Assembly: GCA_964035545.1 (NCBI GenBank) | Contig: OZ037770.1 | Coordinates: 5,962,729 to 6,026,728, forward strand | Direction of reading: 5' to 3' | DNA from: Bugula neritina | Taxonomy: Eukaryota > Animalia > Bryozoa | Length of the DNA stretch: 64,000 bases | Shown here: piece by piece, positions 21,212 to 64,000 of the stretch | Position numbering within the stretch: the stretch's first letter is position 1 | Layout: each line of letters starts with the position of its first letter | Notes under the pieces: generated by a model | What the model saw: only the letters and a program-made list of their open reading frames with translations | The model's database searches: none | Told to the model about the DNA's origin: nothing | Made by a program: the position numbers and the translations under genes

Positions 21212-21244
<33 letters not shown>

Positions 21245-26137: not shown

Positions 26138-29100
26138 ATGGTGAGTGGCAATACATTGTTGTCATTTGTAAACTTTATCAATTAAACTTTCCTTCCATTT
26201 TTAAGTGACTTATGTCTTAATCTTATACTTATACTTATACTTATAGTTATTCTTAAACTTAAACTGTAAAATTAAAACTATAACTATAAGTAAAAGCCAG
26301 AATTTAACTTGGTAATCTTATAAATTATAATTATTGAAAACAAAATGAAAAGGAAGATGAAGAAAAACTTATTATAATGATGGTTCATAAGTATGACAAT
26401 TAATATAATAATCATAATGATAATGTGAATACGAATGCAAATTTAATTATGTATAAATAATACAAATTTAATAAGAATGATAATTATTATTTAAAATTAA
26501 TGGTGATTCATCTAATTTGAATTTTATTGGAATAAAAGGTTTGATAAAATTGAAATAGTGATATACCCAAAGCAAAAGACTAAAATAAAAATGGAAGTTT
26601 AATATTTCAATTTTAATACATCTTATAAATAGAATTCTTGCATTCTTTAAAATTAATTTTATCTCTTTTTATCAATATTATGTAGCTATATTTATAAGTG
26701 AAAGATAAAAACTGAATATGTTTACAATTTGAATTAGTATAATCATAATAATACTCATTCTTATTGAGTTAGTGGTACTCATAGTGATAATCATTACACT
26801 ATCATTATCATTATGAAAGTGTCAATTCATTACTATAATAATAAGCATGTTCCATATTCATATTGTCTATTCAGGGCTCACTTTACAATTATTAACAATA
26901 ACATAAACAAATCAATTTTCTTAAAAATTCAAGGTTTTGCTTTGTCTTTGAATTTAAGGCAATTAGGCCTACTTTGATTTTGAGAAAATACAATTTCTGT
27001 AATAAATTGAAATTATAGGTTTCATCACTTAAGACTAAGTACAAATGTGTTTAGCTGTGATTTATTCACTGTTGCACAATTATGAATACCAAACTCTGAC
27101 AGTGTTATAAGTCACAATTTTTCACTGGCATATGTTAGCAAAGTGTGCCAATAACTATAAAACAGTTTTGATTTGAAATCCTGTAATATCTATTATCTCT
27201 CCTTTCTTATGTATGTTTTTGTACACGATGTACACTACTGCAGTATAGTATAAGTTATGTATGTTCTTTTGTTCACTGTACAGTACAGTGTTCATTGAAC
27301 TCTCCACATAATTGATCTGTTATAAGTATTATCTAATTTAAACTCACAAGTTGGGTTTGAACATTGACTTATCAATATAGAGTATTATAACTGTGAATTG
27401 ATTGCAGGCGTCATTACAACCAGTTTCTATAATGAAGGCAGGAGCGGAAGAGGAACGCTCTGAGATGGCCCGTATGGTAAAGTCACTATCTTGTGTTTTC
27501 TCTTTAACCAAATTATATAATTGCCTGATAATGTCTTGTGTTCATACCAGATTATGTTATAGTGCTTTGCTTTCCTTTCTTTTCCTTTCCTTTACTAGTC
27601 ATTATCACATGAAGTTATCCTCTGCTACTTGGGAAGTCCTGATCCTGAGTCTATATGTTTAGTGTGTGTCATGAGTGTCAGTTGGGTGTCATGAGTGTTA
27701 GTTGTGTGTCATGAGTGTCAGTTGTATGTCATAAGTGCCAGATGTGTATCATGAGTGTCAGGTGTTTGTCATGTGGCAGCAGATTTTTTTGGAAACAGCA
27801 ACAGCTCATTAATTGCTCTCTGTGATGCTCTGTGATTTCTAACTAATTTATTTTTTCTTTCAGTCCTCTTTTGTTGGTGCCATAGCAGTTGGAGACTTGG
27901 TGAAGAGTACTCTTGGACCCAAAGGAATGGTAGGTTCACTGTTTGCCCTGATCATTATGAGACTATCAGCTCTATGCTGTGTGCTGTATCACAAAACAGT
28001 TTGACCTTGCAGTAGATGTACCTGCCAATGTCTAGCTTGTTTACTGTTGTTCTCATTTACCATTGTTGGATTTTGTAGGACAAGATCTTGCAAAGTGTTG
28101 GGCCACACACAGATACGGTGACTGTGACAAACGATGGTGCGACTATAATGAAGTCTATAGGAGTGGACAACCCGGCAGCGAAGGTACTTGTTGACATCAG
28201 CAAGGTTCAAGATGACGAAGTTGGAGATGGTACAACTAGTGTCGTAGTCCTAGCTTGTGAACTGTTGAAGGTAAGGGAGGGTAACATGGATACATAGTAA
28301 GGCTGGTGAGGCTCTCAGTCAGCTTTCAATTATTCTAGCATTACAAATTTGAAGTATTTCCTATTGCTACTAGTATTACCTATTGATGCTCCTATTAACA
28401 AAAAGCTATTACATAACTATCATATATATGTTGTCATTTCTAAAGTTACTCATAAGATGATATTAACACTACCTTTGTCCACTATGTGCCAGTTTTACTG
28501 CAATAGATATCAATTAGCACTGAAAATACTCACTAGATAATAATATTAGTTATTGATTCATCTGCTACATATCCCACAGGAAGCTGAACAGCTCGTCTCA
28601 CAGAAGATGCACCCCCAGACTATCATCTCAGGATGGAGGAAGTCCGTGGATGTGGCTAGAGCTGCGCTGGAGAAGTTTGCTAGGAATCATGGGTAATGAC
28701 TCATCCGATACCAACTTCCTGTGTCTCTGTAGTCCAGGGTGTGATGTGAAACTCAGGTGCTTTTTTCCTGTAGAGACGACCCGGTGAAGTTCCGTGAGGA
28801 TTTGATGAACATAGCTCGCACCACACTCTCCTCCAAGATTCTCACGGGACACAAGGACTACTTCTCCAACCTGGCTGTAGACGCTGTCCTCAGACTCAAA
28901 GGCAGCGGTAACCTAGACGCCATACAGATGATCAAAAAGCCTGGCGGTTTCCTTCACAACAGCTACCTGGATGAAGGTAATCCCTCCCCCTCTCTTGATC
29001 TCCATCAACCTACATGCTATGGCTGTGACACAGACTTTACTGCCAGCAAACCCTACATGTTTCACATACAAAGCTAAGAATATTTTCTTGTGCCTGTGTT

Positions 29101-32100
29101 TCATATTTCAAAAGATGCTGCACTCATCATAAGTATATATTTTACGATTTTATTCTCCACCATTTAGCATCTATAAATTCTATTTACTGGCGCCTCAGCC
29201 ACAATGATAACAGAAGTTGTCTTGCCTCTGGTAAGCGTGCATGTCTTTAGTAGCAGCTGATTTGTTCGTCATTACAACCTTTATCACTAAATTCTTGCAG
29301 GGTTCCTCCTAGATAAGAAAGTTGGAGTCAACCAACCGAAACGAGTTGAGAATGCCAGAATACTCATAGCCAATACACCAATGGACACAGACAAAATCAA
29401 GGTAGGCTTTCAGCTAGCTTTGTGCAGTCGATACACTTGCCGTGCAACTTTACTACTTCCTCTCTCCACCCCCTGTCTTTCCCATTTTCTCCCCTTTTCA
29501 CCCTCTCTTTCTCCCCCTCTCCCTTCTCCCTCTCTTTTTCTGCACTTTATCTCCCCCTCTCCCCACCTATCTCCTTTCCCTTCCTCCCCCTTTCTCTCCC
29601 TCCTCCCTCTCCCTCCTTCCCCCCTTTCTCTCCCTCCCCTCTCTCTCCCTCCCTCTCCCTCCCTTCCCCCTTTCTCTCCCTCCTTCCCCCTTTCTCTCCC
29701 TCCTTCCCCCTTTCTCTCCCCCTCTCTCTCTCACCTAGAATATGTTTCTATGACTCCAGGTGTTTGGATCTCGTGTACGAGTGGACGGAGTTGCTAAAGT
29801 AGCCGAACTAGAGTTGGCAGAAAAGGAGAAAATGAAAGAGAAGGTGGAACTAATTCTTTCCCACAATCCCACAGTGTTTATAAACAGGTTGGTGTTTCCT
29901 ACAATACAGGTTGGTGCCCACCACTAACTTGTGATATACATTATATGATGGCGTAGTAGTGTATCCAGTACAGGGTCATTATTCGAATGGATAGATTTTC
30001 CATGAACTTATGATTGTAGTTTCATTCCATGTAGCTGTTTCCAAACACCGAATGAAAAATCCATTCACATTATGCGAATAATGAAAACGCAATGACGCAC
30101 ATGAGCATACAGATATGTAATAGTAATGGTAATAATATGTGATTTGTTGTGATTGCAGACAGTTGATATACAACTACCCTGAACAGCTGTTTGCTGACAA
30201 AGGTGTGATGGCCATTGAACATGCCGACTTCGAAGGGGTAGAACGTCTGGCTCTAGTAACAGGTCAGTCATCTCACTACCAGTATCACTCTGACTACCAG
30301 TATCACTCTTACTACCAGTATCACTGTCACTACCAGTATCACTCTCACTAACTACCAGTATCACTCTCACTATCAGTATCACTCTCACTAACTACCAGTA
30401 TCACTCACTATCAGTATCACTCTTACTAACTACCAGTATCACTCTGAGTACCAGTATCACTCTCACTACCAGTATCACTCTCACTACCAGTATCACTCTC
30501 ACTACCAAGACCACTCTTACTACCAGTATCACTCTCACTACCAGTATTACTCTCACTACCAGTATCACTGGCTATCACTGTTCTATATATTTTACACCAG
30601 CTCCTCCATATAGTTTAGGCGATGCATAAAACCCTGTTAACGCAGATGAGCAGATTCTCTTGTAAGGAAATCAGTTGATATAAGAATGTGTTGCAAATTA
30701 TTCTCAGAAAGCACATTTAAAAGTTCTGCAACTGTTTTGAGCAATGAATCTGCTGTTTTGTGGAAACTATTGAACGAACATTCTATTGAAAAAGAAACCT
30801 TTTAAAATATCATAAAAACATTTATATATGTTTCATTGAAATTCGTTCTATAGCTGTAGGCTGTGTAGCTAGAATAGGTTTGTATGTTAGCTATTATTGG
30901 TATTTCACAGCTGGCAGAATATAGGAAATTCAGTCGGAAGAGTTTAAAATGTTTTGAGTGTTCCTGTACAGCTTTGTGGAGTATATGGGGATTCTGATTT
31001 GTTGTTTTGCTGTTTAGGCGGAGAAATTTGTTCGACGTTTGACACTCCCGGATCAGTTAAACTCGGCAAGTGTGATCTCATTGAAGAAGTTATCATAGGA
31101 GAAGATAAACTACTGAAGTTCTCTGGTAAGTCCTTGCTTTAACTCATCACAGGGGCTTATTATTTGAGTTTAGTGATTCACTATTTATTACATCTCATTA
31201 GAGGTGATACAAGTTGCTGGGGTAGCTGGGTGTGTATAGAAGGTGATACATGTTACAGGGGTAGCTCTAGGAGAAGCCTGTACAATCATTCTACGTGGTG
31301 CGACTCAACAGATTCTAGATGAAGCGGAGAGATCTCTACACGATGCCTTGTGTGTCCTCTCCGAGACTGTGAAAGAGACGAGGGTTGTGTACGGTAAGTG
31401 TCCTTGACATTCTACTGCTGTATCTCTCTGTGTACTTTATCCGCTAGTTAAATAATGACCAGTTCACCTCCTTCAGGTGGCGGATGTTCTGAGATGGTGA
31501 TGAGCAACGCTGTTACCAAGTTAGCTGAGACCACAGCCGGCAAGGAAGCTGTAGCTATGGAAGCTTTTGCTAGGGCTCTTCGACAGGTGAGTAGTAGTAC
31601 TAGTAGTAGTAGTAGTACTAATAGTAGTACTAGTAGTGCTAATAGTAGTAATGGTACTAATAGTAGTAGTGGTAGTACTAGTACTTGTAGTAGTAGTAGT
31701 AGGGTTGGTGGCGGCGGTGATGGTGATACCAATTAGTGATATTCTTATAACAAAGTCCTCTCAGCTCCTCCACCTTTTCTATCCTATATTTAAGATTCCT
31801 ACGACAATAGCAGACAATGCAGGATATGACAGTGCTGACCTAGTCTCACAACTCCGAGCTGCCCACAATGACGGATTTGACACCAGTGGTCTAGGTATGT
31901 CAGCATATCTTCATATGGCAGCTGTAAACGAGAGTCACGCCTCCTTGACACTTATCAGTTGACTTTGTTTAGTTTCCGAAAGAATCACTCATTACCCTCT
32001 CCTCAATCTTGTGTTCATCTTGTTTAAGTTATAAAGTTGTGCCAATGAACTGAATGTGCGTATGTGTGTGTATGAATGTATGTAGTGTGCGGGACAAGTA

Positions 32101-36914: not shown

Positions 36915-39414
36915 ATTATAAAGAAAGTGTTGTGGTTATTTTGTAGTGCTTCCTCCAGTAACTGAGGTGAGGGCTAGTTTATCTCCTATAGATTATCCAA
37001 GTGTTCTCGTCAGATGGAAAAGCTCTTTCTTGAACCCCCTATGGGACACTGTGAGAGTAACATGCACCCCAGAATGCCCCCCTGTTGTTGTCACTTATAG
37101 TAAACAGACGGCAGCTAAAGTTACCGACCTCCTCCCTGGGGAAAAATATGTCTTTAGAGTTACTGCACTTAGCAACAGCAAGATGATAGCTTCGGTAGAA
37201 AGTCAACCATTGATTGTTGGTAAGAAGAGTCTTCATAGAACACTAACATCTACAATACCTTAAAAATCTGCAATACACTGACATGTACAAGACAATGATA
37301 TATTTACAAGACACCAATACTTCCGTACAGTACACTAACAATACATATAATAAATTTCATGGTTGAAGTAATTTTTTGATTATAATAAAAGTTTTGTTGA
37401 TTTTGTTGTGATTACACCGTTGTATTTAGTAACAATATTGTCATGGTCTAGACTTTAGTGATTAGACTTTTGTCTTCAGAGAATAAATAGCCACTTAGTT
37501 TTTTTCCAAACCACAAAAAATTTAAATCATAAAAACTGACAAAATGAAGTTGACTGCAAAAGATAAGTTTGATTGTAGATACCACTCCAGTGACCAATAT
37601 CACAGCTGCCTTGCTGCCAGAACAGAACAGCACATCTGTGAGAGTTACCTGGGACTACATCTCTATACCAACACTAGGAAGCGACATAGAGATCCTGTGT
37701 GAGCCAGAGTGCCTAGGAAAATGGGTGATGGACAGAGCCAGGTCAGAAATAGTCTCTCGTCTTATCCAAGGAGAATCGTATGCGTTCAAAGTCGGTGTGA
37801 GATACAAACGGATTCATACAGTCAGCAACCTATCCAATCCTGTCACACTGGGTATACTATATTTATACCTGTTATGTAGAACTTGATTGGCTGTACTTTT
37901 CAATCTAGTGAAGATAATTGGTTAGGAGACTATTGCAAGCTTGTCATAACAGTTGAAGCAATTGTGGTTGACTTTAAATAGGGACAACATAAGATTTTAT
38001 GCAGCTATATGCATTCTAACAACTTTTTCAACTTTAATTTGAGAATAATGTTTGTTTTTATTAAAAAGTTTCAACAACTCCATTTGTGATATTTTAATTA
38101 ACATCCTCTCTTTGTACATTTTGTACTAGTAATATCTTGTACAAAAATATCATTGTTTCCATCTTCACTAGCTGAACGCATTTTAAAACAAGACATAAAC
38201 TATTTTGTTGCTTTGGTATCAACCAGCCAACTGTTCCTATATAAACATAGACTAATTATAATAAGCATTTTGCATACAGACAAAATATTATGTTCTGATA
38301 AATAACTTTTAACAGGTTAATATTGCTTTATACAAAACATTATAATCTCATCACAGTTCTTGTTATGTACTGTTGATATTTTGAAGCTAAAGCGCTTGCG
38401 TAGACATGACTTTGTTACAATATGTAAAAGATACTTCATTGTAGCCATGTGTTCCACAGTACTGTCTGCTCATATGACATGCTATCTCTCAATAGGTGCA
38501 CCGGTATGACATGGGAGTTGTTGGGTGTCACTGATGTATTTCTAGAATAATTATAATTAATATCTCGCTTATTATCAACAAAAGTTTATAACAGCCATAT
38601 TTGTTACAAGTTAGTTTAAATTTGAAGTGTGAATCATATTATGCTGCTTTATGAAATATCTTCTAGCTGTACTCTACAATCATGTGACTTGCTACAGTTC
38701 CAGCTTCAGCGAGCAATGTCACCTCCATCCTGTCATCAAACTACTACACAAGTGGAGCTATGGTCTCCTGGACTAACCCTCCTTTCTACACTAAATGGGA
38801 CTATGTAAGAGTTTCCTGTCTCCCAGAATGCTCTTCTATCAATGTCAGCTCAAAGCTGAGCTCAGCTGAAGTCTCCGGTTTAAGTCCAGGGACTGCGTAC
38901 TCCTTCGGTGTGACAGTGGTTAAAGATGAGCTAGAGTCACCAACTATATGGAGTGAGAGTCAGACTCAAGGTGAACTGAGATCAGTTTATGTCTGTAGTC
39001 TACACTCACCCTACTATATGCCCTATATTCTTCAGTAGGCTAAGGCATTCTTTAGGAGAGTGAAACTGCTGGAATTAAGCTTGCCTCAACAATGATTAGT
39101 TGCTATTTATAGCTAATAATAGTTTAAACTTATATATTGCTTTCAGAGAATCCTTTTGAAATGAGAGATGAACCAATTTATTACCTCTTTGTTTAATTAT
39201 TTGTTTGCTTAGCTGATGAATTTACTCAGTGGTCTCAATTGTAATGGCTAGCACATTTGCTTGTAAGCCAGAGGTCTCGGGTTTGAATCTCAGTGGGAGC
39301 AAAGCTTTTTCATAGAGATATACCTATATATTTGAGGTGTTTGCATAGTAGCCAAAAGCATCTTGCTTTATGTGTATCAAACGGACGAGAACACACACAC
39401 AATACACACACACA

Positions 39415-39507
<93 letters not shown>

Positions 39508-39580
39508 CGCACACACGCACACACACACACACACAATACACACACACAATACACACACACACACACACACACGCACACAC

Positions 39581-39617
<37 letters not shown>

Positions 39618-42387
39618 GAAACACACGCAAACACACGCACACCACAGACACACACACACACACGCACGCAAGCACGCACACGCACACACACACGCACACA
39701 CACAAACACATACGCGCACACACACACAGACAAACACCCAGACACACACACACGCACACGTACGCACACACTTGGACACACACACACGCACACACACGTA
39801 CGCACACGCGCATACACACGCGCACACACCACAGACACACACACGCACGCACACACACACAAGGCCTGTATTTTAGTGTTTATTTTGTAAAATATTGAGC
39901 CAGTATTAATGCTGATTTTTTTCACACATTTTACTCAAGACATACCGTATAGCCAGGTGGTTTTTATTGTTAACTCTTTTGTAGCTCTGCCAAGTATTAC
40001 AATAATTATAACAGATTACTCCAACTCATCAGTCACCTTATCCTGGAGACCCATTCAGAAAATAAAAGTTCTTTTCTACCTCATGGGCTGGAGGGCCAGA
40101 GTAAGTAAAACACAAGATTGAATATGTTGTTACAGAATTTAAAACTCTTAACAGTTTATAATATCTATAGCAACAATGAAAACATATTATTTCTCAAAAA
40201 ATAATATATAACATAATATGATAAAATATAATATATTTTTAAATAATATAATATTATATATTAAAATATAATATAACATAACATAATATAATATGATATA
40301 TTACAATATATTTTTATATAATCTGATTTATTATATATTAAAATAAAATATAACATAATATATATAATAACATAATGCTGCATGTAATATAATATTATAA
40401 TAAAACATAACATAATATAGTAATGTAACATAATGGAGTATAAGACATGTTTACAACATATATGTAATGAATAAGCTGAAATATTACACGAACTAAACAA
40501 AGTAATAATTCACAGCTATAACGGAAATAAGCAAGTTTTGCAGTCTAGCTCATTCTTATAGCATCTACTATATTTTATTTCAGCCAAATGGAATCGGCAC
40601 CACAAAACTAACTGCGGATGCTTCTAACTTTACTCTCAATTCACTCCAGCCAGGCTTTACATATATCTTCACTCTGCAGGCAGTGGTTGGAGGTGGACAG
40701 ATGAGGGTGGCGAGTAATTCAGCTACCTTCACCGCTAGTAAGTCTTTTAACTGCTTATAATATAATATGAAGTATTTTAAACTATTTTTAAAACGTTTTT
40801 ATAAAGAATTAAAGTGTATCTATAAAAGAGATCAAAATTGCAAATGCTTAAAACTTACTTTAAATTATTTTGATAAGTTGTATTTTATATTATATAATAT
40901 TACATTACATTATATTATATTATATTATTTTTTTATGCCTATGAAGGGAGTAAAAAATGAACTTGTAATCATATACTTTATATATAAAGATAAATGTAGA
41001 GGTAAATGTGGCAAACAAATCAAAATGAGACACAAAGTTACAGAAAATGCTGCTTGCTGCTTCAGTCTAAGTGATTGATTTGATTGAATTGCTAAACAAA
41101 GCTATACATGTGTGATATTTGTTGATCAGAGTTTACACTACATTCTAGAACCTTTGCCACCTAACAATCTGCAGGCAGACTTGCAAAAAAGAAGAGTTGT
41201 GTTCTCATGGTCACAAGCTCCTGGCTGGAGAGACAACTACCTTGTAGAGCTGGTAGAAGTTTTCACTGACCGAAATAGAAGTGGTGAGCTGTTGTTAATT
41301 ATTCAAAACTCCAAAATTATGTGAAACAAATAAATTTAATTTAGTAGTAAAAATTATAACAAAATTAATTTATCAGAAATTATAGCATATATTCAGACTG
41401 TTTCAGTTCGGTGGGAAGATATTTAATAGTTGACAATTCTTGATTATTAAAGTCATTAGATCACACAAAAGTTAAACAATAATTTAAAAAGATTTAACAA
41501 TTTTTCCAATATATGAGTAGGCTATGACTCTTTAAAATCGATCATAACTTGTTTATACAATAAATAGAGTCAGTGTGGAACCTAATTATAAAGATATCTT
41601 GTGTATAAAAAAAGTCACTCACTTTGATCAACTTAACTTAGCTAAATATTTTTAAGCCTATATTGTAAAAAGAGCAAACAAGTTTCAATTCACATATCTA
41701 TGATTTACGCAATAAATTTGCAAAATCATCAGTATCAGTTTTCATGCATATGTAAAGTTATAACAAAAATTAGACAAAATAGAAATCGTGGACTATATGG
41801 ACTCTATTACTTCAGGGTTTCCATATCTTTGCTGCAAAAATATTGTGTACATAACTAAACAGCCAATCAAAAAGCACTTATTTACTCATTGGCTATTTGG
41901 AAAACCAACTGATTTGAGAATTTAAGAAACATGTAAAATTAGCTACTTATCTAACCATTGTAGAAATAGTAAAGCAAATAAGGTCTAAACTTTGTTGTTG
42001 ATAAATTATGTTTTATGACGTTTGAGATGACTTGAGAAGACTTCACTTGCATACGTAATAATTGCAGAAACCTTTGTACTTGACGGAAACACGACAAGCC
42101 AGGAATACATGGTGAGGAGTGACAATGTAAAGCTGGTAGTATGCGTGCTTCAAGCCCTAGTTAACAGCACGAAAGAAAAAGTTATGCACAGCTCTGGAAC
42201 GATTGTTCAAGTGCCACTTCCACAACTAGGTATGCTACTGCAGGTAGCAACAAATATAATTTGAGCAACTTATGGCGAATATTTTAGTGACATCTAAATT
42301 GCATTCAAAGTTTATACAAAGATATGGATTTTCTGTGAAAAATATTTTATGCGCAGTATATTCACCTAGGTTTAACCAATTATATGA

Positions 42388-42467
<80 letters not shown>

Positions 42468-44471
42468 TATATATTAAAAACTTATTGAAAGTATGGCTAG
42501 GAGATTTTATGTTTGCTGCAACTATGGGGAACTTGGATTTATGAAATTTGTTATAGTCTTAGTGAAGATTAACAAGTTTGTTGTATCATCACTTTCTGTT
42601 CAAACTTATTGTTGAATCAACTTGGATAAAGTTTTAAAAAAGACTGTAAGTGTTTCATAGCTTGAAAATTTTCTGCTTTTAAATGAATGAATATTGCAAC
42701 ATATTTATCATTTACTGGTCTCTAAGTTTTCTTTGTTTTTTAATCGTCAGATTATAGTGCTCAAAAACTGAAATATTTTTACAGTTGAACGTGCCTGCTG
42801 TCATGTTCCTGGAGCCGTAATTTATTTCATATAAATTATGATTTCTTCAAATCAAAAGTCAGGAGTTTAGCATAAAGTTTATGTCCCAGAAACATTGCTT
42901 CACCTGAAATTCACGATAAAAATAATGTGTATACTACATTTATTGGCTTTAGAGAGCAGCCGTTGTCTAGGGGTTTGAATATCTGCCTAATAAGCACAAA
43001 ATCATGGGTTAGAGCCCCGACAAAGACCATTGGTGATGTTAGGAAGAGTATATTATACAGTCATCATTACTTCGGTGCCCCATTTGAATAAGTTCTTAGC
43101 TCGATTTAAAAAAGCTCTCCAATCATTGATGGCGACTATAAACTTGTGCAAGAAATACCATATTGGCTTTTGAGAGAACTTTGACGTATTATTGTGTTGT
43201 AGAAAACCCTGATGACTTCAGCACAAATATATTAGATACTACAACACAAGGGCCACATAAAACACGTCTCAATGCAACAACTGCACCATTTCTTCCAGGA
43301 GCACTCGCCGTGTGTATTTGTCTTATAGCTGTAATGAGCATTGGAGTGGCCGTAACTTTGAAACTCTTTTTCAAGCTGACAGTCCAAGGAAGCAAAAGTA
43401 TGCCCTGTAATATTACTAGTACTAAGAGCTAGCGCTATACATATTATAACCATAATATTACCACTAAATAACCCAATTTTCAAATGTCATGTGTTATTTA
43501 TTGTGCAACTAATATTTCCATGCTTCTCATAACTTTCATCCGATATATTTGTATTCAGATTATATATCTATTTGACAGACCTGGGTGCAGAGTCTAGAGA
43601 GAGAAGTGGAAGTGGGTACACAGATTTGCACATCTATGAAACAATAGATATTTCTAATGAGGGCTTTGTTGAGACCACCACCACCGATGAAGAAGGACCA
43701 CCTGTTCCTACCTTTATTGGAACCTTGGAAATGATGGAAGTAGTTAGAACTGACCTGGATTTAAACAGCTCATGCTCTTATCCTAAAAAAAATACAAAAG
43801 TCTCGCAACCTGATCATACTGATAAGTCATCAATTAACAAACAAATCACAACAGAACATTCTAAAGCTCCTGACAGACTTAGCAAGTGTGATTTAATTGA
43901 AAGTGACGCAATTAGCAGAGCCAAATCCATCACTCATCAGGTGCTTGATGGTGACGGTACTGGTTTCAAATCACAACCCAGTGACAAAAGTCACTCACAA
44001 AACAAATTATTGACCTGTATAGGCACAGATCAGATTACCGTACACAGGGACTGTCAGCTGCCACCTCCATTGACCTTTGACTCAAATGCTGCTATAGTGG
44101 ACAAACAAATGACAATGAAACTTGACGTAGACAACAAGTTAGGATATGTCACTTTGAGTGATCTTACTGGCTATGAGCCCCTGTTAACGAGGGGTGTAGA
44201 TAACACTCCGTACGCAGTGATAGATGTAGAAACCGGGCAAGTGGGTAGGGCCAATAGTGAAGACTCTATCAACGCAGACAACCAGGTGCAGCCAAAGCCT
44301 GGTTATGTAACCCTAAGCGATCTCACAGGGTATGAGGTGATGACTGAAAGTGAAGGAAGTAGTTGCAGTGTGTATACAGGGCTAGATAAACAACCAGGCA
44401 AGGTTATCGCTGATCTACAACCAATACAGATGTGTCTTATTCAATGCAGTCAAACTCAAAGAAAGTTTTGA
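33798..44471 (+). CDS. Uncharacterised type-I membrane receptor: signal peptide, 5 fibronectin type III domains, TM helix, Tyr-motif cytoplasmic tail (~857 aa; ~906 aa if spliced to the SAM exon)
   Basis: Exons: 33798-33824 + 34465-34537 ([19 protein letters not shown], signal peptide); 36947-37219, 37579-37851, 38698-38970 (three 273-nt phase-1 FN3 exons with V-x-W, LxPG/QG-xx-Y-x-F-x-V); 39985-40100 + 40584-40737 (FN3-4); 41149-41283 + 42068-42229 (divergent FN3-5); 43203-43397 ([26 protein letters not shown]); 43579-44471. All phases compatible. Confidence 0.82.
33930..34370. repeat. Degenerate 9-bp (tatactgtg) tandem repeat
   Basis: Direct observation; intronic. Confidence 0.85.
35388..35455 (-). 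mobile_element. tRNA-derived SINE head or tRNA pseudogene
   Basis: - strand tgtggtgtaattggttagcg...ttgcaa...ggtttgaatccc has A/B boxes but no proper acceptor stem; a related decayed copy lies near 39230-39300 (+). Confidence 0.5.
36617..36914. repeat. (CA)n microsatellite
   Basis: Direct observation. Confidence 0.97.
39391..39860. repeat. (CA)n compound microsatellite
   Basis: Direct observation. Confidence 0.97.
42388..42473. repeat. (TA)n microsatellite
   Basis: Direct observation. Confidence 0.95.
42954..43152 (+). mobile_element. tRNA-derived SINE (same family as 23484-23684)
   Basis: gagcagccgttgtctagggg ... gggttagagcccc ... tgatgttaggaagag ... taagttcttagc ... gactataaacttg. Confidence 0.72.
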
Positions 44472-45814: not shown

Positions 45815-46122
45815 TGTGGTGGCTCGTGGAGCTACCAGCAGCACAGTACGCAGGGTCGCGTTATTGACCCAGAACAATGACAGCCAATTAGCGGCTTTAA
45901 TAGTTAGCAGCAGTAGTAGTTTTCCCGCTGTTAGTTAGTCGAAGTTAGAGTGTTAAATAGTCTAGATGTGTGGAATTGTCAAATGTATTTGTATCGTTTT
46001 TAGTAATGTATTACTGTGTTTAAAGTATATGCTCGTTCACTCGACTTATCCTGGTGCAGTTCTATAGCAAGTAATTAGACTCTCTGGATTGCATATCAAC
46101 CCTAATTCTGAAAATCATAACA
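45815..46122 (+). repeat. 5' LTR
   Basis: tgtggtggctcg...cataaca, preceded by ATAT. Confidence 0.95.
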
Positions 46123-46123
46123 G

Positions 46124-46141
46124 TGGTGGAAGCGGTGGGAT
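46124..46141 (+). other. Primer binding site, tRNA-Leu type
   Basis: TGGTGGAAGCGGTGGGAT is 17/18 complementary to the 3' end of metazoan tRNA-Leu(AAG/UAG) (...AUCCCACCGCUGCCACCA), recalled from memory. Confidence 0.75.
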
Positions 46142-46155
46142 AGTGCACATCCAAG

Positions 46156-47109
46156 ATGGAGACTGAAAATGCTGGAATGCAACCACCGGCAGTAGAAGGT
46201 GAGCGTAGAGACAATGCTATAGAGACAATGCCTGTCAACCATGTAGTAGAAGAGTGAAGGGTTCCGCGGGAACTAATTGAAGACCGCTACCGGTTAAAGG
46301 CGCCCACCTTCACGGGCGAAGAGGAGGTGGAGCAATTTATCCAAGAGTTTAGCGACGTAATGGACGTCGCCCAGTGGCCCCCGAGGGTGGCCCTGCTGAA
46401 GCTTAGAATGGCATTGATGGACAAAGCCAAACCTTATGGGCTGGGCGTAGACATCGATAATATCTTTGCTTCTCTGCGGGCCCGCTTCGGCCTCTCTGCT
46501 ACAGATGCCCGGGCCCAATTGCAGAGGTTGCGGCGTGATCCCTGCACCCCGCTACCGGAACATGCCGCCGCGGTCATGAAGCTGGCACAAATCGCATCCA
46601 GCGACTTGCCCCCAGTCAACCGCGAGAGGTATACCCTTGACGCCTTTATAGCATCTGTCGACGATCTGGGTCTCCACCACCAGTTTCTAGCTAGGGGAGT
46701 CACCATCGTTGAAGATGCTCTGACAGAGGGGGAAGCTTACCTCCTAGCCAATCAGATGCATAAAAGTCGCGGGAGCTCCCGTTAAGTAGAGGTAGACCAC
46801 GCGAACACGGCAGCGGGACGAGAGGAAGAAACCTCCGCCACGGCTGCCGTGGCTCAGTTAGCGACAGCATCGAAAGTCACGCAACTGACAGACATGCTGG
46901 CTAAGCTGATAGCAACACTGACACCCCAAACCCCAGTAGGTAACGCCGCTTAGCCCGTACGACCACCGGCGCCGCCACCGGGGGAAACGGTCAGTTTTTG
47001 CTGGGAATGCGGAAATCAAGGACATTTTCGCAGGTACTGTCCCTTCCTAACTCCGGAGTTAAACTACAGCGGCCCGCAGATGTTCCCACCTCTTGCGGGC
47101 CGACGATGA
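46156..47109 (+). pseudogene. gag: gag with CCHC zinc knuckle; in-frame premature stops
   Basis: KAPTFTGEEEVEQF capsid-like motif; CWECGNQGHFRRYC knuckle; stops at ~46255, ~46783 and ~46951. Confidence 0.85.
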
Positions 47110-50100
47110 AACCCCCAGGGAAGAAGAAACGCAGGTCACCTAGACGGGTGCCGCGTGCTGGCAACCAACAGTGGCAACAGCCGCGACGGACCAGCAAGGG
47201 GCCCCGCCCCGCCGCTGCCTTTTCCGTGCCCCTCCACAATCGATTCGACGGGCTACCAGCCTAAGAATCTGGATGGGAGCCAGCAAAGGTAGCCGGAAAT
47301 CTAGCCTCGGCACCTCCGAGGCCCATTTACCACCATCCCAAGAGACCTCCTTCGCGACCCAAAGCAAGGGAGGTACTCCCTGCGAGAGTAAGGCCTGAAG
47401 AGAGAGTTCAGGTGCAGCCCCATGGGAACAGCTATTTCTTGCCCGGTAAATTGGAAGGCAAAGCTGTTACTTTTCTCATTGATTCAGGCTGTACCACGAA
47501 TCTCCTAAGTCGCCAACTCTTCGACACCCTCAGTGCTAGGGTCAGGGACGAGATGGAACCATACGAGGGGGAGTATGGCACCCTAGCTGACGGGTCGTGC
47601 CTTCCCTTCTATGGTATAATTGAGCTGACGGGACGAGTCCGAGATCAAACGATCCAAGAGATGTTTATCGTCAGTCAGCTCAAGGAGGACGCCATCCTCG
47701 GGATGCCATTCCTAAAACGGCACGGATGTCACATCGATTTTCGTAAAAATGCGATGGTGATGTCCGGGCGAGAACTCGCCTGCGTCGACAAGTTCGGCCG
47801 CCCTTTAGTGGGAGGTGTGCAGGTGGTATGCAACCGTACCATACCAGGCCGCTCCCGGGCTACCATTCACTGCAGGATGAACAATAGCCGGATCTCTGGA
47901 CTCGGGGTGGTTGAAGGCGCGCACGAGAGGATCCAACTTGCCAGCAGTCTGAATCAGCTGACTGAGCAAGGGGAGATCTTAGTGCAGTGCGTCAACCCCA
48001 TTATCGAGTCTGTCAAGCTTCCGGCTGGGTCTATGCTGGGTCGTTTTCACTCTGTTCAGGAGGAGGACGTGGGCCCGTCGCTGGGTGATGCGACGGAGGC
48101 ATTCCCTCGGTGCCCTACTCAAGGGCGAGGGACAGTCCCAGCACATCTCCGGGAGTTATATGACACAGCCTGTGGCGGCTGCGCGAGTAACAAAGAACGC
48201 CAAGCTATGGCGAAGTTGCTACGCGACTACGGTGATGTGTTCAGCAGCGGAGATCATGACGTGGGGCTGACTGGAGTTGTCAGACACAAAATACCGCTGA
48301 CTGCAGGGACAGTCCCTGTCCGGCAACCCACACGCAGGCTGGGGCCGGAAAAAGAGAAGGAGGTTAGCCGACAAGTACAGGATCTTTTGGACCGCGGCCT
48401 CATAGAGCCCGCCCATAGTGCGTGGAGCTCGCCGGTCGTACTGGTCTGGAAGAAAGACGGCAGTTGGCGGTTCTGTGTGGATTAACGCAAACTCAATAGC
48501 GTAACCATACAGGACGCCTACCCTCTACCTCGTATTGATGAGTCATTGGACGCCCTGGCCGGCAGCAAGTACTTCAGTACGTTAGACTTGCTGAGTGGCT
48601 ACTGGCAAGTCCCTCTAAGTCCCGACGTCCAGGAGAAAGCGGCGTTTATCACACGGGACGGTTTGTGGAAGTGGAAGGTGCTGCCTTTCGGGTTAACCTC
48701 CGCCCCGGCCACCTTCCAGAGGCTGATGGAGCAAGTCCTCAGCGGGCTGCATTGGAAGACACTGCTGATCTACTTCGATGATGTCATCGTGATCTCCCCA
48801 GACTTCGAGACGCATGTCAGTCGTCTGCAGGAGGTCTTCGAGAGACTCCGAGGTGCCGGTCTTAAGCTCAAACCTTCCAAGTGCGCTCTATTGCAGCCGG
48901 AGGTCAAGTACCTGGAGCACGTTGTCGGTCGAAACGGCGTGGCAACGGATCCCGAAAAGGTACGGGCGATAGAAGACTGGGTCACCCCCAAGACTTGACC
49001 GGACTCCGGGCTTTTTTGGGGCTGGTAGGGTATTACAGGCAATGCATACCAGACTTTGCGGGCATAGCACAGCCGTTAAATCGGCTCACCGCAAAGGGGG
49101 TGACGTGGCAGTGGACCCCAGTCGAACAAAGAGCGTTCGACCGCCTCAAGGGCTGCCTACTAACGGCGCCCATCTTGGCCTACCCAGACCCCACTCTGGA
49201 GTACATCCTCGACACTGACACCAGTGACCAAAATGTTGGCGCTGTGCTGTCTCAAGTGCAGGAAGGCCGAGAGGTAGTAGTAGCCTACTACAGCAAGTCT
49301 CTCTCACCCACTGAACGAAGTTACTGCACTACCCGCAAGGAGCTGCTGGCAGTAATCAAGTCAGTGAAGCACTTCAGACCATACTTATATGGCAGGAAGT
49401 TCCGGCTGCGTACGGATCATGCCTCGCTGATCTGGTTGTGCAAGAGAGCAGAGCCCTCTAATCAGGTCGCCCGGTGGCTCGAAATCCTAGCTGAATTCTC
49501 GTACCGGATTGAACATCGACCGGGCAAGAGACACAGCAATGCGGATGGTTTGAGCCGCCGACCTGATGGAGGTTGCAAACAGTGTCTCAACATCGAGAGT
49601 AGGGACGGAGGTCCCCCGCGATGCGAGTTGGAAACATTGGCTCACTACGGAGCACCGTTTGACTGGGACCAAGGTCAACTCAGGCAGGAGGTTGACGAGT
49701 CCCCGGAGGTTGTACAGAACTTCCGCGCCAATCCTGTACTGGCCGATAATGTCCAGGAGCTGCAGAAGCTCCAAGAGGAGTTGCCTGGGGTAGTGGCAGA
49801 CATATATCGGGCCAAAAAGGACGAGCGACGACCCAGCGAGGAACGCATGCGGCAGGGATGCGCCGAGTTCCGGCTACTCTGCCAGCGTTGGGACTCGCTG
49901 AGGATCGGGCAGGATGGTCTATTGACCATCTCTCTAGCTGCCAACGGCAGACACCCGGAAAGGAAAAGGGTGGTCTGCCCCAGTGCCATACGCCGTGAGT
50001 TAATCTGTGACACTCACAAACAGGCCCACGCAGGGGTTAAGAGAGTGATCTCCAAATTGCAACTCCGGTGATATTGGCCCAAAATGGGGCGGGATGTCCG

Positions 50101-51410
50101 GCTCAGAGTAAAGCAGTGCGAAATCTGCCAAGCCAGCAAGCATGGCCGTCTCCCTGGTAAAGCGGGATGGCGGAGGCTATATGCTTGCAGGTCGTGGCAA
50201 GTGGTAGCTGTTGACCTGGTTGGACCCATGCCCCTGACCCCCAGAGGCAATAGTTGGATCTTAGTACTGACCGACTACTTTACTAGGTGGGCAGATGCTC
50301 TGGCTATCCCAGATGCGTCAGCCCCAACAGTGGCCAGGACGCTAGACCAACACGTATTCTGTTATTTCAGGCTCCCCGAACAGATACACTCTTATCAAGG
50401 CGCTCAATTCCAGTCTCAACTGATGGGCGACCTTTGCCACCTCTGGGGAGTAAATCAGAGTAGGACCATCCCCTACCACCCTCAAGGTAATTGGGTGGTG
50501 GAGCGCAACAACCGGATGCTAGGTGATGCGCTCCGGAGTCTCCTCCTCGGACGCAGCCAAGAGGAATGGGACACGGTGTTGCCGCAGGTCATGCGTGTAT
50601 ACCGTAGCACCCCACACATCAGTACTGGTGAGACCCCAAACCTCTTGATGCTCGGGAGAGAGACCCGGGTCCCTGACCATTTCACCTACCACGTTCCAGA
50701 GCTAGACAACTCGATTCACGAGTATGCCAGTGAACTAGTGGAACGGATGAAGGCCGCACACGATATACTGCGCGAACAGCAGTGGAAGGTGCCACACGAA
50801 GATTCTGAGGAACCACCCCTCTACCAAACGGGAGATAAGGTGTGGATGGTCAATTACCGTAGGCGTCGCGGACAGGCGGCTAAGTTACAGCCTAAGTTCG
50901 TGGGACCCTACGTGATCATCGAGGCTATGCCCAACCATACGTACAAGATTGAGCGCTCAGGACAGGTGTCTATCCAAAATGAGTCTCGCTTGATGTCGTA
51001 TTAGGCTAGCCCCGACGCGGTGGGAGAAGCCCCCCTGTTGTTGGAGCCCAGGAGGTAGACAACAACGCGTGGGCGACGGCGGCAGGCACCTGAATATGAA
51101 GTGGTCATACCGCGGGAGGAAGAATTGGTGAGAGATGAGCGATCGCTTTTACCAACAGAAGCGCGTCCGCCACCGCCAAATCTGATTCCACCACTTCCAG
51201 AAACCGAGCCGGTTCCGGAAGTGCAAACCCCCACGGAGGGAGGGGCTCCATCTGGAGAACAAGAAGAAATGACTACTAACGGTGAAGTAGAGACGCCACC
51301 AGAGGCCCCTACTAATATACCGGCGAGTGCGTCACCTCCCCTAGAGCGGGGACAACGTACGAGGCAACCCCCCGCCTATTTGAAGGACTTCGTATGCGAC
51401 TGCGTTAAAA
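47058..51410 (+). pseudogene. pol: pol (protease, RT, RNase H, integrase), disrupted
   Basis: FLIDSG protease; RT motifs LPFGLTSAPATFQ and YFDD; RNase H LDTD..., KELLAV, TDH; integrase HHCC zinc finger and core with second catalytic Asp replaced (IHSYQG); GPY module. Stops at ~47262, 48483, 50069, 51002 and a frameshift near 48990. The 3' end is approximate. Confidence 0.93.
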
Positions 51411-51651
51411 GCGGCGCGTATGAAAGTCTAGGGGAAAATCGTATGAGAAAAGTATCGAGCAAATGTGGGAGTCGTCAACACCACGGAAATATCAACTTTT
51501 GTATCGGCGGAAATAGAAACAAAATTCATCCGCCGGTGCACAAAGTCCTAATCACGCACCCCAACCACGTTACTCGATCTTTTCATACGCTGATGCAGTC
51601 AAGAGTAGACGTGTTCCTAATCAGTAGTCCAAACCATTTCACAAATTCAGT

Positions 51652-52725
51652 ATGTCTTACGACAACAGATTATGGGGTGAGTTAACTATATTTTGATATG
51701 GAAACTAGATTGCATCGCTCAGCTCCGACTCACTGAGTCAAATGAGCTGGAGATAGGCTAGTGAACTATCGTATTAAGAACTCAGTTTGACTTAGAGATT
51801 TTATAATCTCATTGCAATACGTGTTCTATCTGACTATTCACTACCATAAATCTCTACGAGGTAACTGAACAAGAAGTTGCCAGCCTGTTCAAGCCGACAA
51901 CACTGCAGTGTATTATACTAACACTGTTGAAACTTTTTCAGATTACACTCGACCCGTTACAACCAGGGTATGGGATAGAGCGCTTCCCGCACCGCATCCT
52001 GAGGAGTATACCAATAGTGACCGGCCCGAGCCGCTGCGCCGCCGTTGGCGGTGGATGTCGCCGGAAAACAGAGGAGCAGATAGAAACAGCCTGGGGGTCC
52101 AAAGGAAGAACGCGGTGCCAGATTTGTGATGAAGAGTGCGCCTCTCACCGCTCTTTGAAGCTACATGTCAATGCCCACCTCTTACTCACATTCTGCCCCT
52201 GTGGATATAATGATGTCTACCCCTACCTCGTCACTAGACATCGGGCGACGGGCTGTTTCTCCGGAGAGAATTACGTGGTGGATGCCAAACTCTATCCAGA
52301 ATTCTTAACTCTGATACGACCCCCTAGTGAAGAAGGCGATGTTGTTAGCCGTCCTGACCTCAGGTTTCCAGCGCGTACTAGACTATGCCAGGCAACAATC
52401 TCCGTTGGTATCCGACCGCCCTCAGATTGCGTACACCCCCGAAGAGTTTTCCTATCCCGAAGAAGGAGAGGTCTCCCCTACCCCGACGAAGAGACGAACC
52501 CGGTCTCTAAGTCCCCCTTTTCGTCGCAAACGGACACCATCCCCAGACCCTGCTCGCCTGGCCACAGTGGAGGAATGCCTCTTCTGACTGCAGGAGGAAT
52601 TTACCCAGTTAGCACCGGATCTGCTTAATACCACGACGGGACTTTTCCAACTAAAAGGATCGGTGGGCCGGATTAAACGGAAGTTACGTACATGCCAAGC
52701 CAAACATCGGCGTGCCCAACACTGA
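51652..52725 (+). pseudogene. Spliced accessory ORF3 of the Gypsy element: double zinc finger + coiled-coil protein, disrupted
   Basis: Exon 1 51652-51676 (MSYDNRLW G|gtgagt); intron with TACTAAC (51916-51922) and ctttttcag; exon 2 from 51942. Frameshifts near 52055 and 52322 and a stop at 52585 are inferred from alignment to the intact homolog at 61551-62747. Confidence 0.72.
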
Positions 52726-53020
52726 CTCTGGTTCTGTTGCCCGGAATGATCCACAAACTTCGCCCTCTTGGGAGACCCAAGACTATCATGTAAATGCTTG
52801 ACTGCTCGACAGTTCGACTCCTTGTCCAATACCACAGCTAGCCGGTATTCCTCCTCTATAGCTGGCCAATTGTATGTAACTCGCTGTTATAATGACTCTC
52901 TCTGTTATTATGTATCTTTATCTATATATATTGTCTTTTTCAATTTTGTCTACTGATGTATGTGGGTAATGACGAAATATTTTTTATATCAGAAAGAGGG
53001 CTTTCTGCTGGTGGAGGTGG

Positions 53021-53327
53021 TGTGGTGGCTCGTGGAGCTACCAGCAGCACAGTACGCAGGGTCGCGTTATTGACCCGGAACAATGACAGCCAATTAGCGG
53101 CTTTAATAGTTAGCAGCAGTAGTAGTTTTCCCGCTGTTTGTTAGTCGAAGTTAGAGTGTTAAATAGTCTAGATGTGTGGAACTGTCAAATGTATTTGTAT
53201 CGTTTTTGTAATGTATTATTGTGTTCAAAATATATAGTCGTTCACTCGACTTATCCTGGTGCAGCTCTATAGCGAGTAATTAGACTCTCTGGATTGCATA
53301 TCAACCCTAATTCTGGAAAACATAACA
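53021..53327 (+). repeat. 3' LTR
   Basis: About 96% identical to the 5' LTR, followed by ATAT, preceded by the G-rich imperfect PPT ggtggaggtgg. Confidence 0.95.
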
Positions 53328-60898: not shown

Positions 60899-61306
60899 TG
60901 TAGTGAATTTTGCCAGTTCACTATTATTATTTGTGGGTCTACTTAATCAAAGCCACTGCGACAGGTTGTTTACGATAAGATACTTTATTATTTACACAAA
61001 TACAAGAAGGTTATTTACTGCTAGCATGAATAGAAAACGATTACATAATTAGTGAGCTTTAATACACAACTGTTCTAAATGAAGTCCCAAGCTGCTCTGC
61101 CGGCTAGCTACTCAGCGCACTGCAACTACGAGTAGCTAGCTCCACCTGCTATCAATTAGTGTCACTGTCCTGATTGGTGGCTACTAATGGTGCCACTACT
61201 GTCCATAGTTACACTCCGACAGTGTCGAACTCGCAAGATACATAAACAATATAGAGTAACCTTTTCGATTAACATAATAGGAATTGCACTACTAAAATCT
61301 ATCACA
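60899..61306 (-). repeat. Putative 3' LTR of the second Gypsy element (~408 bp)
   Basis: Starts with TG right after the polypurine tract, ends ACA, contains a poly(A) signal; the partner LTR is outside the window, so the boundary is unconfirmed. Confidence 0.65.
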
Positions 61307-61550
61307 CTCTCCTCGCCTATCGAAAAGTACTCTCTAGACTTAATATTTACATGACAGTAACACACGAATAATAATGAAGGTAACATAGTGCTTACAAAAC
61401 TGGGGATACAATTGAACAAGAGAAAATATATATACAGAGTAGATAACATAAGTATAATAAATGAGTCTTCACGCCGTAGTCCATGACACCTATTTACACT
61501 GCTTGACTAGCCAGGAGGGGGGGGGGGTACATGTGTAGGTGGCCGCACCT

Positions 61551-62747
61551 CTAGCACTTCTTTGCCAGCCGTTTCTCTAGTCGGGTCTGCAACTTAGCCA
61601 GCTCGGTGGTTGCTCGCTTCTGTTCCTTACTGAGGCGAGCCATACGCCGTTGCACTTTCCTAATGTCGGCTAGTAGGGATTGGTCAGGGTCGCTGTCATC
61701 TCGGGGTGTGTTGCTAGCACCCCTCTTCTTCTTATGGGTGTGTCGGGGTACGTAGGAGATTGTCGTCGTTGGGGGTTGTGAGTCCTTCGTCACAGCGCGT
61801 CCAGCACGGGTTACTACGACGCGTAGAGGTTGGGTGGTTACGTCTGGAGGGTAGGTAGTCGTTGTTTCGGAGGGTTGGGGGTCTGCATCAGAGTCACTCT
61901 CTACTGTAGGTCGGGTAGCGGGGAAGTGGTCCAGGAGAGTCTGTCGTCGGTCCGGGTCAGTCACGTGGGGTAGTATTAGGTCCCGGAACTCCGTGTAAGA
62001 GTCTGCGTCGACTTCATACAAGTGTCCTACGTAACAGTCTCTAGTCCGTTGGTGTCTCAGTATCGTGTCCCGGCAGAAGTGGTGGACTCCGCAGGGACAG
62101 AAAGTCACAGTAAAGTGTTGTGGAACGTGTATTCTCAGTCCCCTAGTAGTCGATAGTATTCTTCTACATTCAGTGCATTGTCTATTGTCGTCCGTTCCTA
62201 CTATTGCTTCTATCAATGTTCGAGTCCGTCGAGTCGTCCAGTTAGTCCGTCCCAGTAAGGCCCTTGGTAGTGCTAGAGTAGTGTCCTTGGCTACAGTCAA
62301 GTCATCAGTCAAGTCGTTGGTATCAATTTGCATCGCAGTGTGTGTCGGGGAGTCCGTAAATGTTGCTAAATGTATGTCGGACAGCATGTCTACCCCTGCT
62401 TCTGACATGCTGTCCCAGTTAGTCGTAGGCGTGTCAAGTAATGCCTGTATCTCGTCGGATACAGGCTCAGTCTCACCTGCAATAGAGTATTTAAATTTAA
62501 TTACACTCTATGCGTGGGACTCCCGTTCCAAACAATATTAAATAATCGAGTCTCACTGTCACTCACTGATCGTGTAATCAGCTGAGTCGACTGTCCCACT
62601 CTAATTATCAATATCATTCGCTGTCAGGAGTTTCAACTTTATCATTATGACAAAGTGAGACTGCTGTCGCTACCAGAATAAATTCTAATTAATTATTATA
62701 GAATTTCTAGTAGACTTACCCCCCAAAACAGTTGCTGCATTAGACAT
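61551..62747 (-). CDS. Intact two-exon accessory gene of Gypsy element 2: C2H2 + CxC-H-C zinc fingers, basic patch, C-terminal coiled coil (~317 aa)
   Basis: Exon 1 62747-62720 (MSNAATVLG G|gtaagt); 243-nt intron; acceptor ctctattgcag; exon 2 62476-61551 in frame with the 285-aa ORF. Contains CTEC-x12-HVPQH, CPC-x12-H-x5-C, HKKKR and heptad-like LLADIRKVQRRMARLSKEQKRATTELAKLQTRLEKRL. Confidence 0.8.
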
Positions 62748-62987: not shown

Positions 62988-64000
62988 CTACAGAATACTG
63001 TGCATGTCGACCAAGTCACACAAGAAGTCTTTTAAATAAGATGGTGGCGCCCTGGTACGTTGGCTACGGTCCAACGGTACCGGGGAGTTTGCTGCGACTG
63101 GCGACTCTTCCACCACGGGTGGTGTCGCCAGTACGGGGGGGTCCACCAGTACGGGTGGCCCTCCCCCAGCTGCCTCTCCCTCAGTATCCTGAGGAATTTC
63201 CATCTCATCCGGAACGATGGGCCTGTCGACCGGCTCCACAGGTGGTGGGGCCGGCTCCGACAGGTCTTCAGGTGTGTCGACCTCCTCTTCCTGGGGTGGA
63301 GGAGGTTGGGGCTGGTCGGCTGGCGCATCAGCCGCCCCGTCCTGGTCTGGCAGTATCTCCTCAATCTCTCGATATGCCATGGGTCGCCCCCTCATAGGAG
63401 GGCGCCTAGCTGGCTCTAAGAGAGGAGGTGCTTGACCTGCCGCATCAGGACTTGCCCAGTGAGGTTTTAGCCGTGCCTCGTTCTGGACCGACACTTGTCC
63501 AGACCGTTCCACTTTGTATGTATGATTTGGCATTACCTCAATTACGCAGTAGGGACCTACGAACTTCGGCTGCAACTTGGCTGCCTGTCCGCGCCTGCGG
63601 CGATGACTGGTCATCCAGACCAAGTCCCCCACCTTGTATAAAGGTGGGTCGTCAGAGTCACCACTCCTGACCTGCCACTGCTGCTCACGTAGCACCTCGT
63701 GAGCCGTCCCCATGCGTTTTACGAGCTTGTCCACGTAGTCGTGGACATTGCTCTCTGGATTCGGAACATGATAGGTTACGTGCTCAGGAACCCTTGTTTC
63801 TCTCCCCAGCATGAGAATTAGGGGTCTCCAGTGTACTGGAGTGAGGGGTACTACGGTACGCTCGCATGATCTGCGGCAACACCAAGTCCCACTCTTCTTG
63901 GCTCCTACCGATAAGCAGGCTTCTCAGAGAGTCCCCTAGCATTCGGTTGTTCCGCTCCACGACCCCGTTCTCTTGCGGGTGATACGGGGTCGTCCGACTC
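62988..64000 (-). pseudogene. pol: pol integrase C-terminal part (element 2)
   Basis: TTPYHPQENGVVERNNR core end, GPY module, acidic/Pro-rich tail; frameshift near 63820. Confidence 0.88.

Follow-up and report, generated by a model that had tools for sequence, protein, structure and literature searches.

A likely spliced double-zinc-finger accessory gene located after pol and ahead of the 3′ LTR of Gypsy retrotransposons in Bugula neritina

What does a Gypsy retrotransposon do with an intron-containing gene in the place where env would be expected? The question is raised by two elements within the 64,000-nt stretch of Bugula neritina DNA that we analyzed (hereafter, the window). Element 1 (45815-53327, + strand) is a full-length, decayed Gypsy copy in which LTRs of ~308 nt (95.8% identical to each other) enclose a PBS, gag, and a pol whose Pfam domains are arranged as Asp_protease_2, RVT_1, RT_RNaseH, and rve, i.e., in the PR-RT-RH-IN order that defines Ty3/Gypsy elements. 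TG...CA LTRs, a PBS, a polypurine tract (PPT), and a target-site duplication are all four present, the last as a 4-nt ATAT flank on both sides, and stop codons interrupt both gag and pol. Element 2 runs in the opposite direction, and the window holds the integrase end of its pol, its PPT, and its 3′ LTR, with the 5′ end lying outside. Its pol portion (62988-64000, − strand; cut by the window end) comprises the end of the integrase core, an SH3-like C-terminal domain, and an acidic tail, where the last pol ORF (63923-62988, −) spans the integrase end and the SH3-like domain. This integrase is 67% identical to that of element 1 over 122 aa. The 3′ LTR of element 2 (60899-61306, −; 408 nt, TG...CA) is preceded by the PPT, and in runs X2 and X3, other copies of the element continue from the LTR end into a PBS that resembles the one of element 1. 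As the preliminary description of this locus had stated, the LTRs of the two elements have no evident similarity (best blastn E = 0.097), and a 9-mer that both carry near the promoter-like region is within chance. We also noted a T-rich noncoding stretch of 38 nt upstream of the PPT in both elements (52908-52945, +, and 61410-61446, −; 79% alike, E = 0.008), which may be an RNA element or a low-complexity match. Elsewhere in the window, the ORFs at 5869-6489, 16557-24478, 28745-31962, and 36922-44471 resemble, as judged by eye from their translations, fragments of host genes, namely, moesin/ezrin-like, Wapl-like, CCT-beta-like chaperonin, and fibronectin type III repeat genes; the introns of these host fragments contain many tandem repeats.

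In element 2, the end of pol at 62988 is followed by a 240-nt spacer, a micro-exon, an intron, a long second exon, the PPT, and the LTR. Exon 1 (62720-62747, −) is a 28-nt ATG-containing micro-exon ending in phase 1; the intron (62477-62719, −) is a 243-nt phase-1 GT-AG intron with a GTAAGT donor and a TTGCAG acceptor, and it is AT-rich (GC content of 0.35 versus 0.53 in exon 2); exon 2 (61551-62476, −) spans 926 nt and encodes an acidic N-terminal part, a double zinc-finger core, a basic patch, and a coiled coil. Joining the two exons yields an open frame of 317 aa with a single terminal stop, exactly the gene that had been proposed. The corresponding gene of element 1 consists of a 25-nt exon 1 (51652-51676, +; ATG at 51652, phase 1), a 265-nt phase-1 intron (51677-51941, +) with a GTGAGT donor, a TACTAAC branch-point match, and a CAG acceptor, and an exon 2 (51942-52725, +) that is broken by two frameshifts: Aligned with its relative P0033, this exon matches in three pieces, the frame shifting near 52066 and again near 52322. 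The earlier claim that element 1 carries the same gene thus holds for the layout and the intron phase but not for an intact copy. The zinc-finger exons of the two elements share 40 of 111 core residues (36%, E = 2e-15), a similarity previously judged by eye, and blastn found no match between these exons at the DNA level.

Such an arrangement arises infrequently in random sequence. Upon dinucleotide shuffling of the stretch from the pol stop to the acceptor (2000 trials per element), an in-frame ATG followed by a phase-1 GTRAGT appeared in 71 trials for element 2 and in 74 for element 1 (~3.5% each), so the layout common to both elements is unlikely to be due to chance. TACTAAC occurred at the branch position of element 1 in 1 of 2000 shuffles; the intron of element 2 contains no such branch-point match. 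The gag start of element 1 (46156-46204, +) moreover includes a phase-1 donor match, AG/GTGAG at 46199, located 43 nt into gag and representing the only AG/GTRAG on the 7.5-kb sense strand of the element. Being phase-compatible with the accessory acceptor, it is a candidate upstream donor that could be used for a subgenomic RNA. Candidate acceptors, each a pyrimidine-rich CTTTTCA stretch plus CAG, lie ahead of the micro-exon at ~62826 (−) and ~51598 (+), i.e., 76 nt (element 2) and 53 nt (element 1) before its ATG. In combination with the gag-start donor of element 1, these acceptors would turn the micro-exon into the middle exon of a doubly spliced RNA, akin to the one described for HTLV-1 Tax/Rex (PMC3434621).

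The best sign that this splicing is real comes from the relative P0014, whose ORF opens with the exon 1 peptide and passes straight into exon 2 where the junction is predicted, without any insertion or loss of residues. P0014 is the one such protein among 32 close relatives and stems from a prokaryote-style gene call on a JGI contig; this contig would represent either spliced RNA or an intron-less DNA copy and would thus point to splicing at the predicted sites, barring a chance deletion that hit both ends exactly. Ten further relatives read through from the intron and keep junction residue pairs that, as judged by eye from protein rather than DNA, fit a phase-1 YAG acceptor: A-G-E or V-G-E in P0008, P0010, P0023, P0049, P0082, and P0173, and S-D or S-G in P0033, P0034, P0046, and P0061. 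In runs X1-X3 (contigs, RNA or DNA unspecified), none of the 15 listed joints of 52 spans the intron, which carries no weight either way. We conclude that the accessory gene is likely spliced in two exons. Protein-level constraint is supported as well: In a set of 30 close relatives, identity is 77% in the core versus 52 to 55% in the linkers and the coil, and six of eight exon 2 variants fall on the third codon position among the variants listed for runs X1-X3 (40 of 516 rows), a weak signal.

The encoded protein was modeled with AlphaFold, which placed its core in a compact domain (pLDDT 93, pTM 0.84) and rendered the whole of exon 2 as a disordered N-terminus followed by the core, which a disordered linker connects to a terminal helix of 44 residues. 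The folded core of ~120 aa (61910-62270, −) comprises a helix, a C2H2 finger, a C-x-C...H finger, and a strand with two helices, while the terminal helix (H263-306, pLDDT 86-98; 61554-61690, −) is a predicted coiled coil. Finger 1 displays the C-x2-C-x12-H-x3-H spacing and beta-beta-alpha fold of a classical C2H2 finger and matches C2H2 profiles (SALL3/4 and others), with single proteins falling below the Pfam cutoff. In an alignment of 92 rows, the finger ligands were kept in 98 to 100%, partly through the choice of rows, but the fourth ligand of finger 2 was a cysteine in only 58% of the filled rows and is thus variable; the double zinc finger originally described therefore stands for finger 1, and for finger 2 except its last cysteine. 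Conservation extended to positions that had not been selected on, with a tryptophan upstream kept in 85% and a Val-Asp pair downstream in 95% and 90% of the same 92 rows. The best VIA structure matches, weak ones, were DNA-bound tandem C2H2 pairs that aligned ~50 to 57 residues with residues 24-84 (Z of 3.3 to 3.8), among them Kaiso (Z = 3.8, rmsd 2.8, 57 aligned) and SALL4 (Z = 3.5). The tandem pairs of Kaiso/ZBTB33, SALL4, ZBTB20, and CTCF overlay over this length at 2.3 to 2.8 Å. Unlike these pairs, the core has no canonical C2H2 linker between its two fingers, finger 2 is of the C-x-C type with its variable fourth ligand, the pair is surrounded by additional helices and a strand, and Z remains under 4. 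A Foldseek search of the predicted core against the PDB and viral models gave no match at E ≤ 0.001, so the structural check suggested at the outset returned a confident fold without a close known counterpart at that threshold. C2H2 fingers also bind RNA and proteins.

We considered an Env protein of the errantivirus-like glycoprotein type and rejected it, given that the accessory protein has no hydrophobic segment and no Pfam family and that its model consists of zinc fingers and a coiled coil. No transmembrane stretch was found in the protein of element 2 (best 19-residue hydropathy, 0.74), in agreement with the earlier view that it is not Env, and hydropathy exceeded 1.6 in 4 of 101 family members.

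The accessory protein belongs to a large family. Database searches yielded 32 close matches for the element 2 query, 2 for element 1, and 44 with a profile, and the family as a whole amounts to 306 clusters at 50% identity (E ≤ 0.001; 125 clusters at 1e-10), of which 150 were listed, with generic C2H2 proteins such as P0192 among the weakest. No Pfam family covers the whole domain, and the ESM Atlas returned unnamed clusters and generic C2H2 proteins only. Pattern matches numbered 50 in metagenome contigs and 41 in viral contigs, and none was confirmed as a relative; the integrase query found no match in the viral contigs. A degenerate motif scan likewise picked up 7 viral, 21 metagenome, and 22 prokaryote-genome loci, with L022 as the only true member (1 of 50).

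Across this family, the N-terminus was net acidic in 47 of 53 members and the core net basic in 88 of 101. A basic patch was found in 30 of 61 C-termini (shuffles: 14.5, maximum 22) and a terminal heptad helix in 32 of 61 (shuffles: ~1). An acidic-hydrophobic window was present in 28 of 53 N-termini versus 6 of 61 C-termini, mostly a composition effect, as shuffled N-termini gave a mean of 22.8 and a maximum of 28. N-termini differ greatly within the family, and some subfamilies lack them. These counts support a family-wide layout of acidic N-terminus, basic finger core, basic patch, and coiled coil that resembles a transcription factor. As a side observation, the domain is duplicated in tandem in P0048/P0193 and in P0068, seemingly in two independent events, and one of the duplications resides in a W. 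subatra gene that is annotated with isoforms.

To which genome does such a gene belong, that of the element or that of the host? Genomic context was read for three loci, viz., elements 1 and 2 and L022 (CAJIBL010000229.1, 1-4530, −). The latter carries, in this order, a zinc-finger ORF of at least 726 aa, a PPT, an LTR of ~715 nt, a PBS nearly the same as that of element 1, gag, and protease, where the identity to element 1 is 37% for gag, which has a CCHC knuckle, and 55% for protease. Judged from this order, L022 is a tandem or circularized copy of a distant Gypsy family, and its ORF ahead of the PPT and LTR joins the two window elements in upholding the claim of an element-borne, conserved, non-Env gene in the env position. 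In P0155, a protease 38% identical to that of element 1 is joined to the zinc-finger domain, and P0175 has an integrase-tail-like motif upstream of the domain. P0155 and P0198 (ENA) are ORFs of 1145 to 1208 aa that contain the protease of this clade and the zinc-finger domain without RT, RNase H, or integrase in between; they possibly represent a non-autonomous derivative that retained the accessory gene.

Organism names were looked up for 28 proteins and were obtained for three clusters, all of them annotated genes of Watersipora subatra or Bugula neritina, from which we infer that the lineage is bryozoan. These named proteins (XP_067940963.1/XP_067940964.1 and XP_067944745.1 in W. subatra; KAF6040922.1 in B. 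neritina) are uncharacterized. They share the core domain of element 2 at 28 to 34% identity (E of 5e-26 to 2e-11), and in two of them the C-terminus is likewise a heptad helix; unlike the element genes, they are annotated as genes, and one has two copies of the domain. Through these annotated genes, the domain is linked to the host, which the preliminary description had not noticed. P0131 (W. subatra) and P0204 (B. neritina) have in common an extra, unnamed N-terminal region and are candidate host orthologs. The element-linked members are only 27 to 36% identical to each other, which does not look like a recent capture from the host, a possibility that the preliminary description had raised against its own reading. 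In trees of the 105-column core, which are poorly resolved, element-linked rows occur on both sides of the deepest split and intermix with host-annotated rows, with no well-supported branch that forces the mixing. Of 200 bootstrap trees, built from 33 hand-picked rows, none placed either group by itself on one side; rows that lacked part of the ligand pattern were excluded, as were near-duplicates and most of the close relatives. Overall, the domain appears to have a long history in the elements rather than to have been captured recently, and the trees give no direction of host-element exchange.

How does this gene compare to known systems? The preliminary description recognized no described equivalent, which was too strong. 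In C. elegans, the Gypsy/Ty3 element Cer1 makes a spliced, nuclear accessory protein with a regulatory role, CERV, from the same pol-to-LTR slot, a different protein that, according to the available text of that report, exports RNA and is not needed for transcription (PMC10309623). The gene described here resembles CERV in being an accessory ORF located after pol and ahead of the 3′ LTR with splicing supported via P0014. CERV has exons in common with gag, and its domains are H, M, and a GTPase-like G, plus a possible C4 finger (PMC10309623), whereas our gene encodes a C2H2 and C-x-C...H finger pair, has an ATG micro-exon of its own, and shows no G domain in the exon 2 model. HTLV-1 Tax and Rex are 3′-end regulators whose RNA is multiply spliced and includes a small middle exon, where Tax transactivates the LTR and Rex exports unspliced RNA (PMC3434621). 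Unlike the elements studied here, HTLV-1 is a retrovirus with env; no homology is shown, and the activity and the upstream exon are, in our case, inferred. The same slot also hosts extra ORFs in plant LTR retrotransposons, e.g., Grande GENE23, some of which are nuclear with a proposed regulatory role (PMC7264820). The nuclear plant ORFs are antisense, unlike the sense accessory gene, and the available text mentions neither zinc fingers nor introns (PMC7264820). In invertebrates, Gypsy-like elements of bdelloid rotifers had non-Env genes swapped into the ORF3 slot; the products in the accessible part of that report are a fusion glycoprotein, a GDSL esterase, or a DEDDy exonuclease, not zinc-finger proteins (PMC5408684). 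Plant accessory ORFs (PMC7264820, PMC12786077) and rotifer ORF3s (PMC5408684) show, within the text available, that the slot has often been refilled.

A metazoan env survey covers bryozoan elements with env and, in its available text, mentions neither zinc nor splicing (PMC13524379); the corresponding parts of an annelid survey (PMC8556966) and a review (PMC13269885) held nothing relevant to the accessory gene family. In the literature searched as full text without supplements, no description of this double-zinc-finger gene family was found, and a curated Repbase, Dfam, or GyDB entry may exist. Hence, what is new is a double-zinc-finger domain family missing from Pfam; a spliced accessory regulator in the Gypsy pol-to-LTR slot was already known from CERV.

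As to function, we tentatively favor, at slightly less than an even chance, a nuclear and probably DNA-binding activator of the element's own expression. The unspliced, full-length genomic RNA would be the form that is copied, in which case the intron would persist. A spliced RNA, derived either from the LTR via an upstream donor or from an internal promoter, would make the protein, which would be brought into the nucleus by its basic patch and oligomerized by its coiled coil. There, the finger pair would read LTR DNA, and the acidic N-terminus would recruit co-activators or counter silencing, as a Tax-like positive feedback. Several observations count against such an activator. We found no 8-mer common to the three LTRs of element 1, element 2, and L022, i.e., no common target site; annotated bryozoan genes carry the domain as well; and the element 1 subfamily (P0033, P0034) is devoid of the acidic-hydrophobic N-terminus. 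Where present, this N-terminal motif also fits the spacing of an export signal, as expected if the protein were a Rev/Rex/CERV-like export factor, a function that we consider rather unlikely. The fingers and the basic patch would then bind unspliced genomic RNA, the coiled coil would oligomerize the protein, and a leucine-rich N-terminal signal would export it. Export of the unspliced RNA would explain the survival of a sense intron, given that unspliced RNA has to be exported if an element contains strong splice sites, as CERV does for Cer1 from the same slot (PMC10309623). The hydrophobic spacing of export signals was seen in 20 of the 20 close relatives where the motif region was found, and in sister subfamilies too. 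However, export patterns were not enriched family-wide (18 of 53 N-termini versus a shuffled mean of 21.9), and those in acidic context numbered 15 versus 10.6 in shuffles, a count reached by 35 of 500 shuffles. The overlay of the finger pair on DNA-bound C2H2 pairs, weak as it is, and an exon 2 model that, unlike CERV, has no GTPase-like domain likewise argue against export.

It is distinctly unlikely that the protein serves instead as another kind of nuclear helper, such as a tether of the integration complex to chosen DNA, a copy-number repressor, or a decoy for host silencing proteins. A finger pair with a coiled coil suits an adaptor, N-termini are variable and missing in some subfamilies, and the plant accessory ORFs in the same slot are nuclear with roles given as unknown in the text available (PMC7264820); yet the prevalence of acidic N-termini (47 of 53) fits activation better than repression. 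Very improbable, in our estimate, is a captured bryozoan host zinc-finger gene that travels as a passenger without a role for the element. The intron would be easiest explained by such a DNA-level capture, the named clusters are all annotated W. subatra or B. neritina genes, and two of these genes share an extra N-terminal region, as host orthologs would. Against this stand the low mutual identity of element-linked members, their position on both sides of the deepest, weakly resolved split, and the long retention of a conserved core, frame, and intron phase, which is not expected for a passenger. A separate alternative concerns the start of the protein only and can be combined with any of the functions above: The micro-exon may not be the start, with exon 2 either coding for the protein by itself or being joined to a donor in the gag leader. 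The phase-1 donor 43 nt into gag of element 1 would suit the same acceptor, exons are shared by CERV and gag (PMC10309623), and the long unbroken ORFs of L022, P0155, and P0175 need no micro-exon. We nevertheless regard this start as unlikely, since P0014 has the micro-exon joined to exon 2 and both window elements place an ATG and a phase-1 donor at matching positions that shuffling rarely produced.

Extended to the family, the activator reading leads to a wider scenario that we deem possible though doubtful: an old and diverse bryozoan Gypsy lineage with its own sequence-specific transcription factor, which would be made from multiply spliced RNA as in complex retroviruses, coevolve with the LTR of each family, be kept by non-autonomous, RT-less derivatives, and have entered host genes by repeated domestication. 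The general view is that LTR retrotransposons depend on the host for the factors that transcribe them, and an accessory activator would let elements switch themselves on. Cer1 is one animal element known, from the text available, to make a spliced regulator (PMC10309623). If true, a conserved, lineage-wide transcription-factor-like gene would extend the style of regulation of complex retroviruses to Gypsy elements. It would also offer a testable case of gene exchange between elements and hosts in a little-studied phylum, where hundreds of diverged pairs of protein and LTR would permit direct tests of coevolution.
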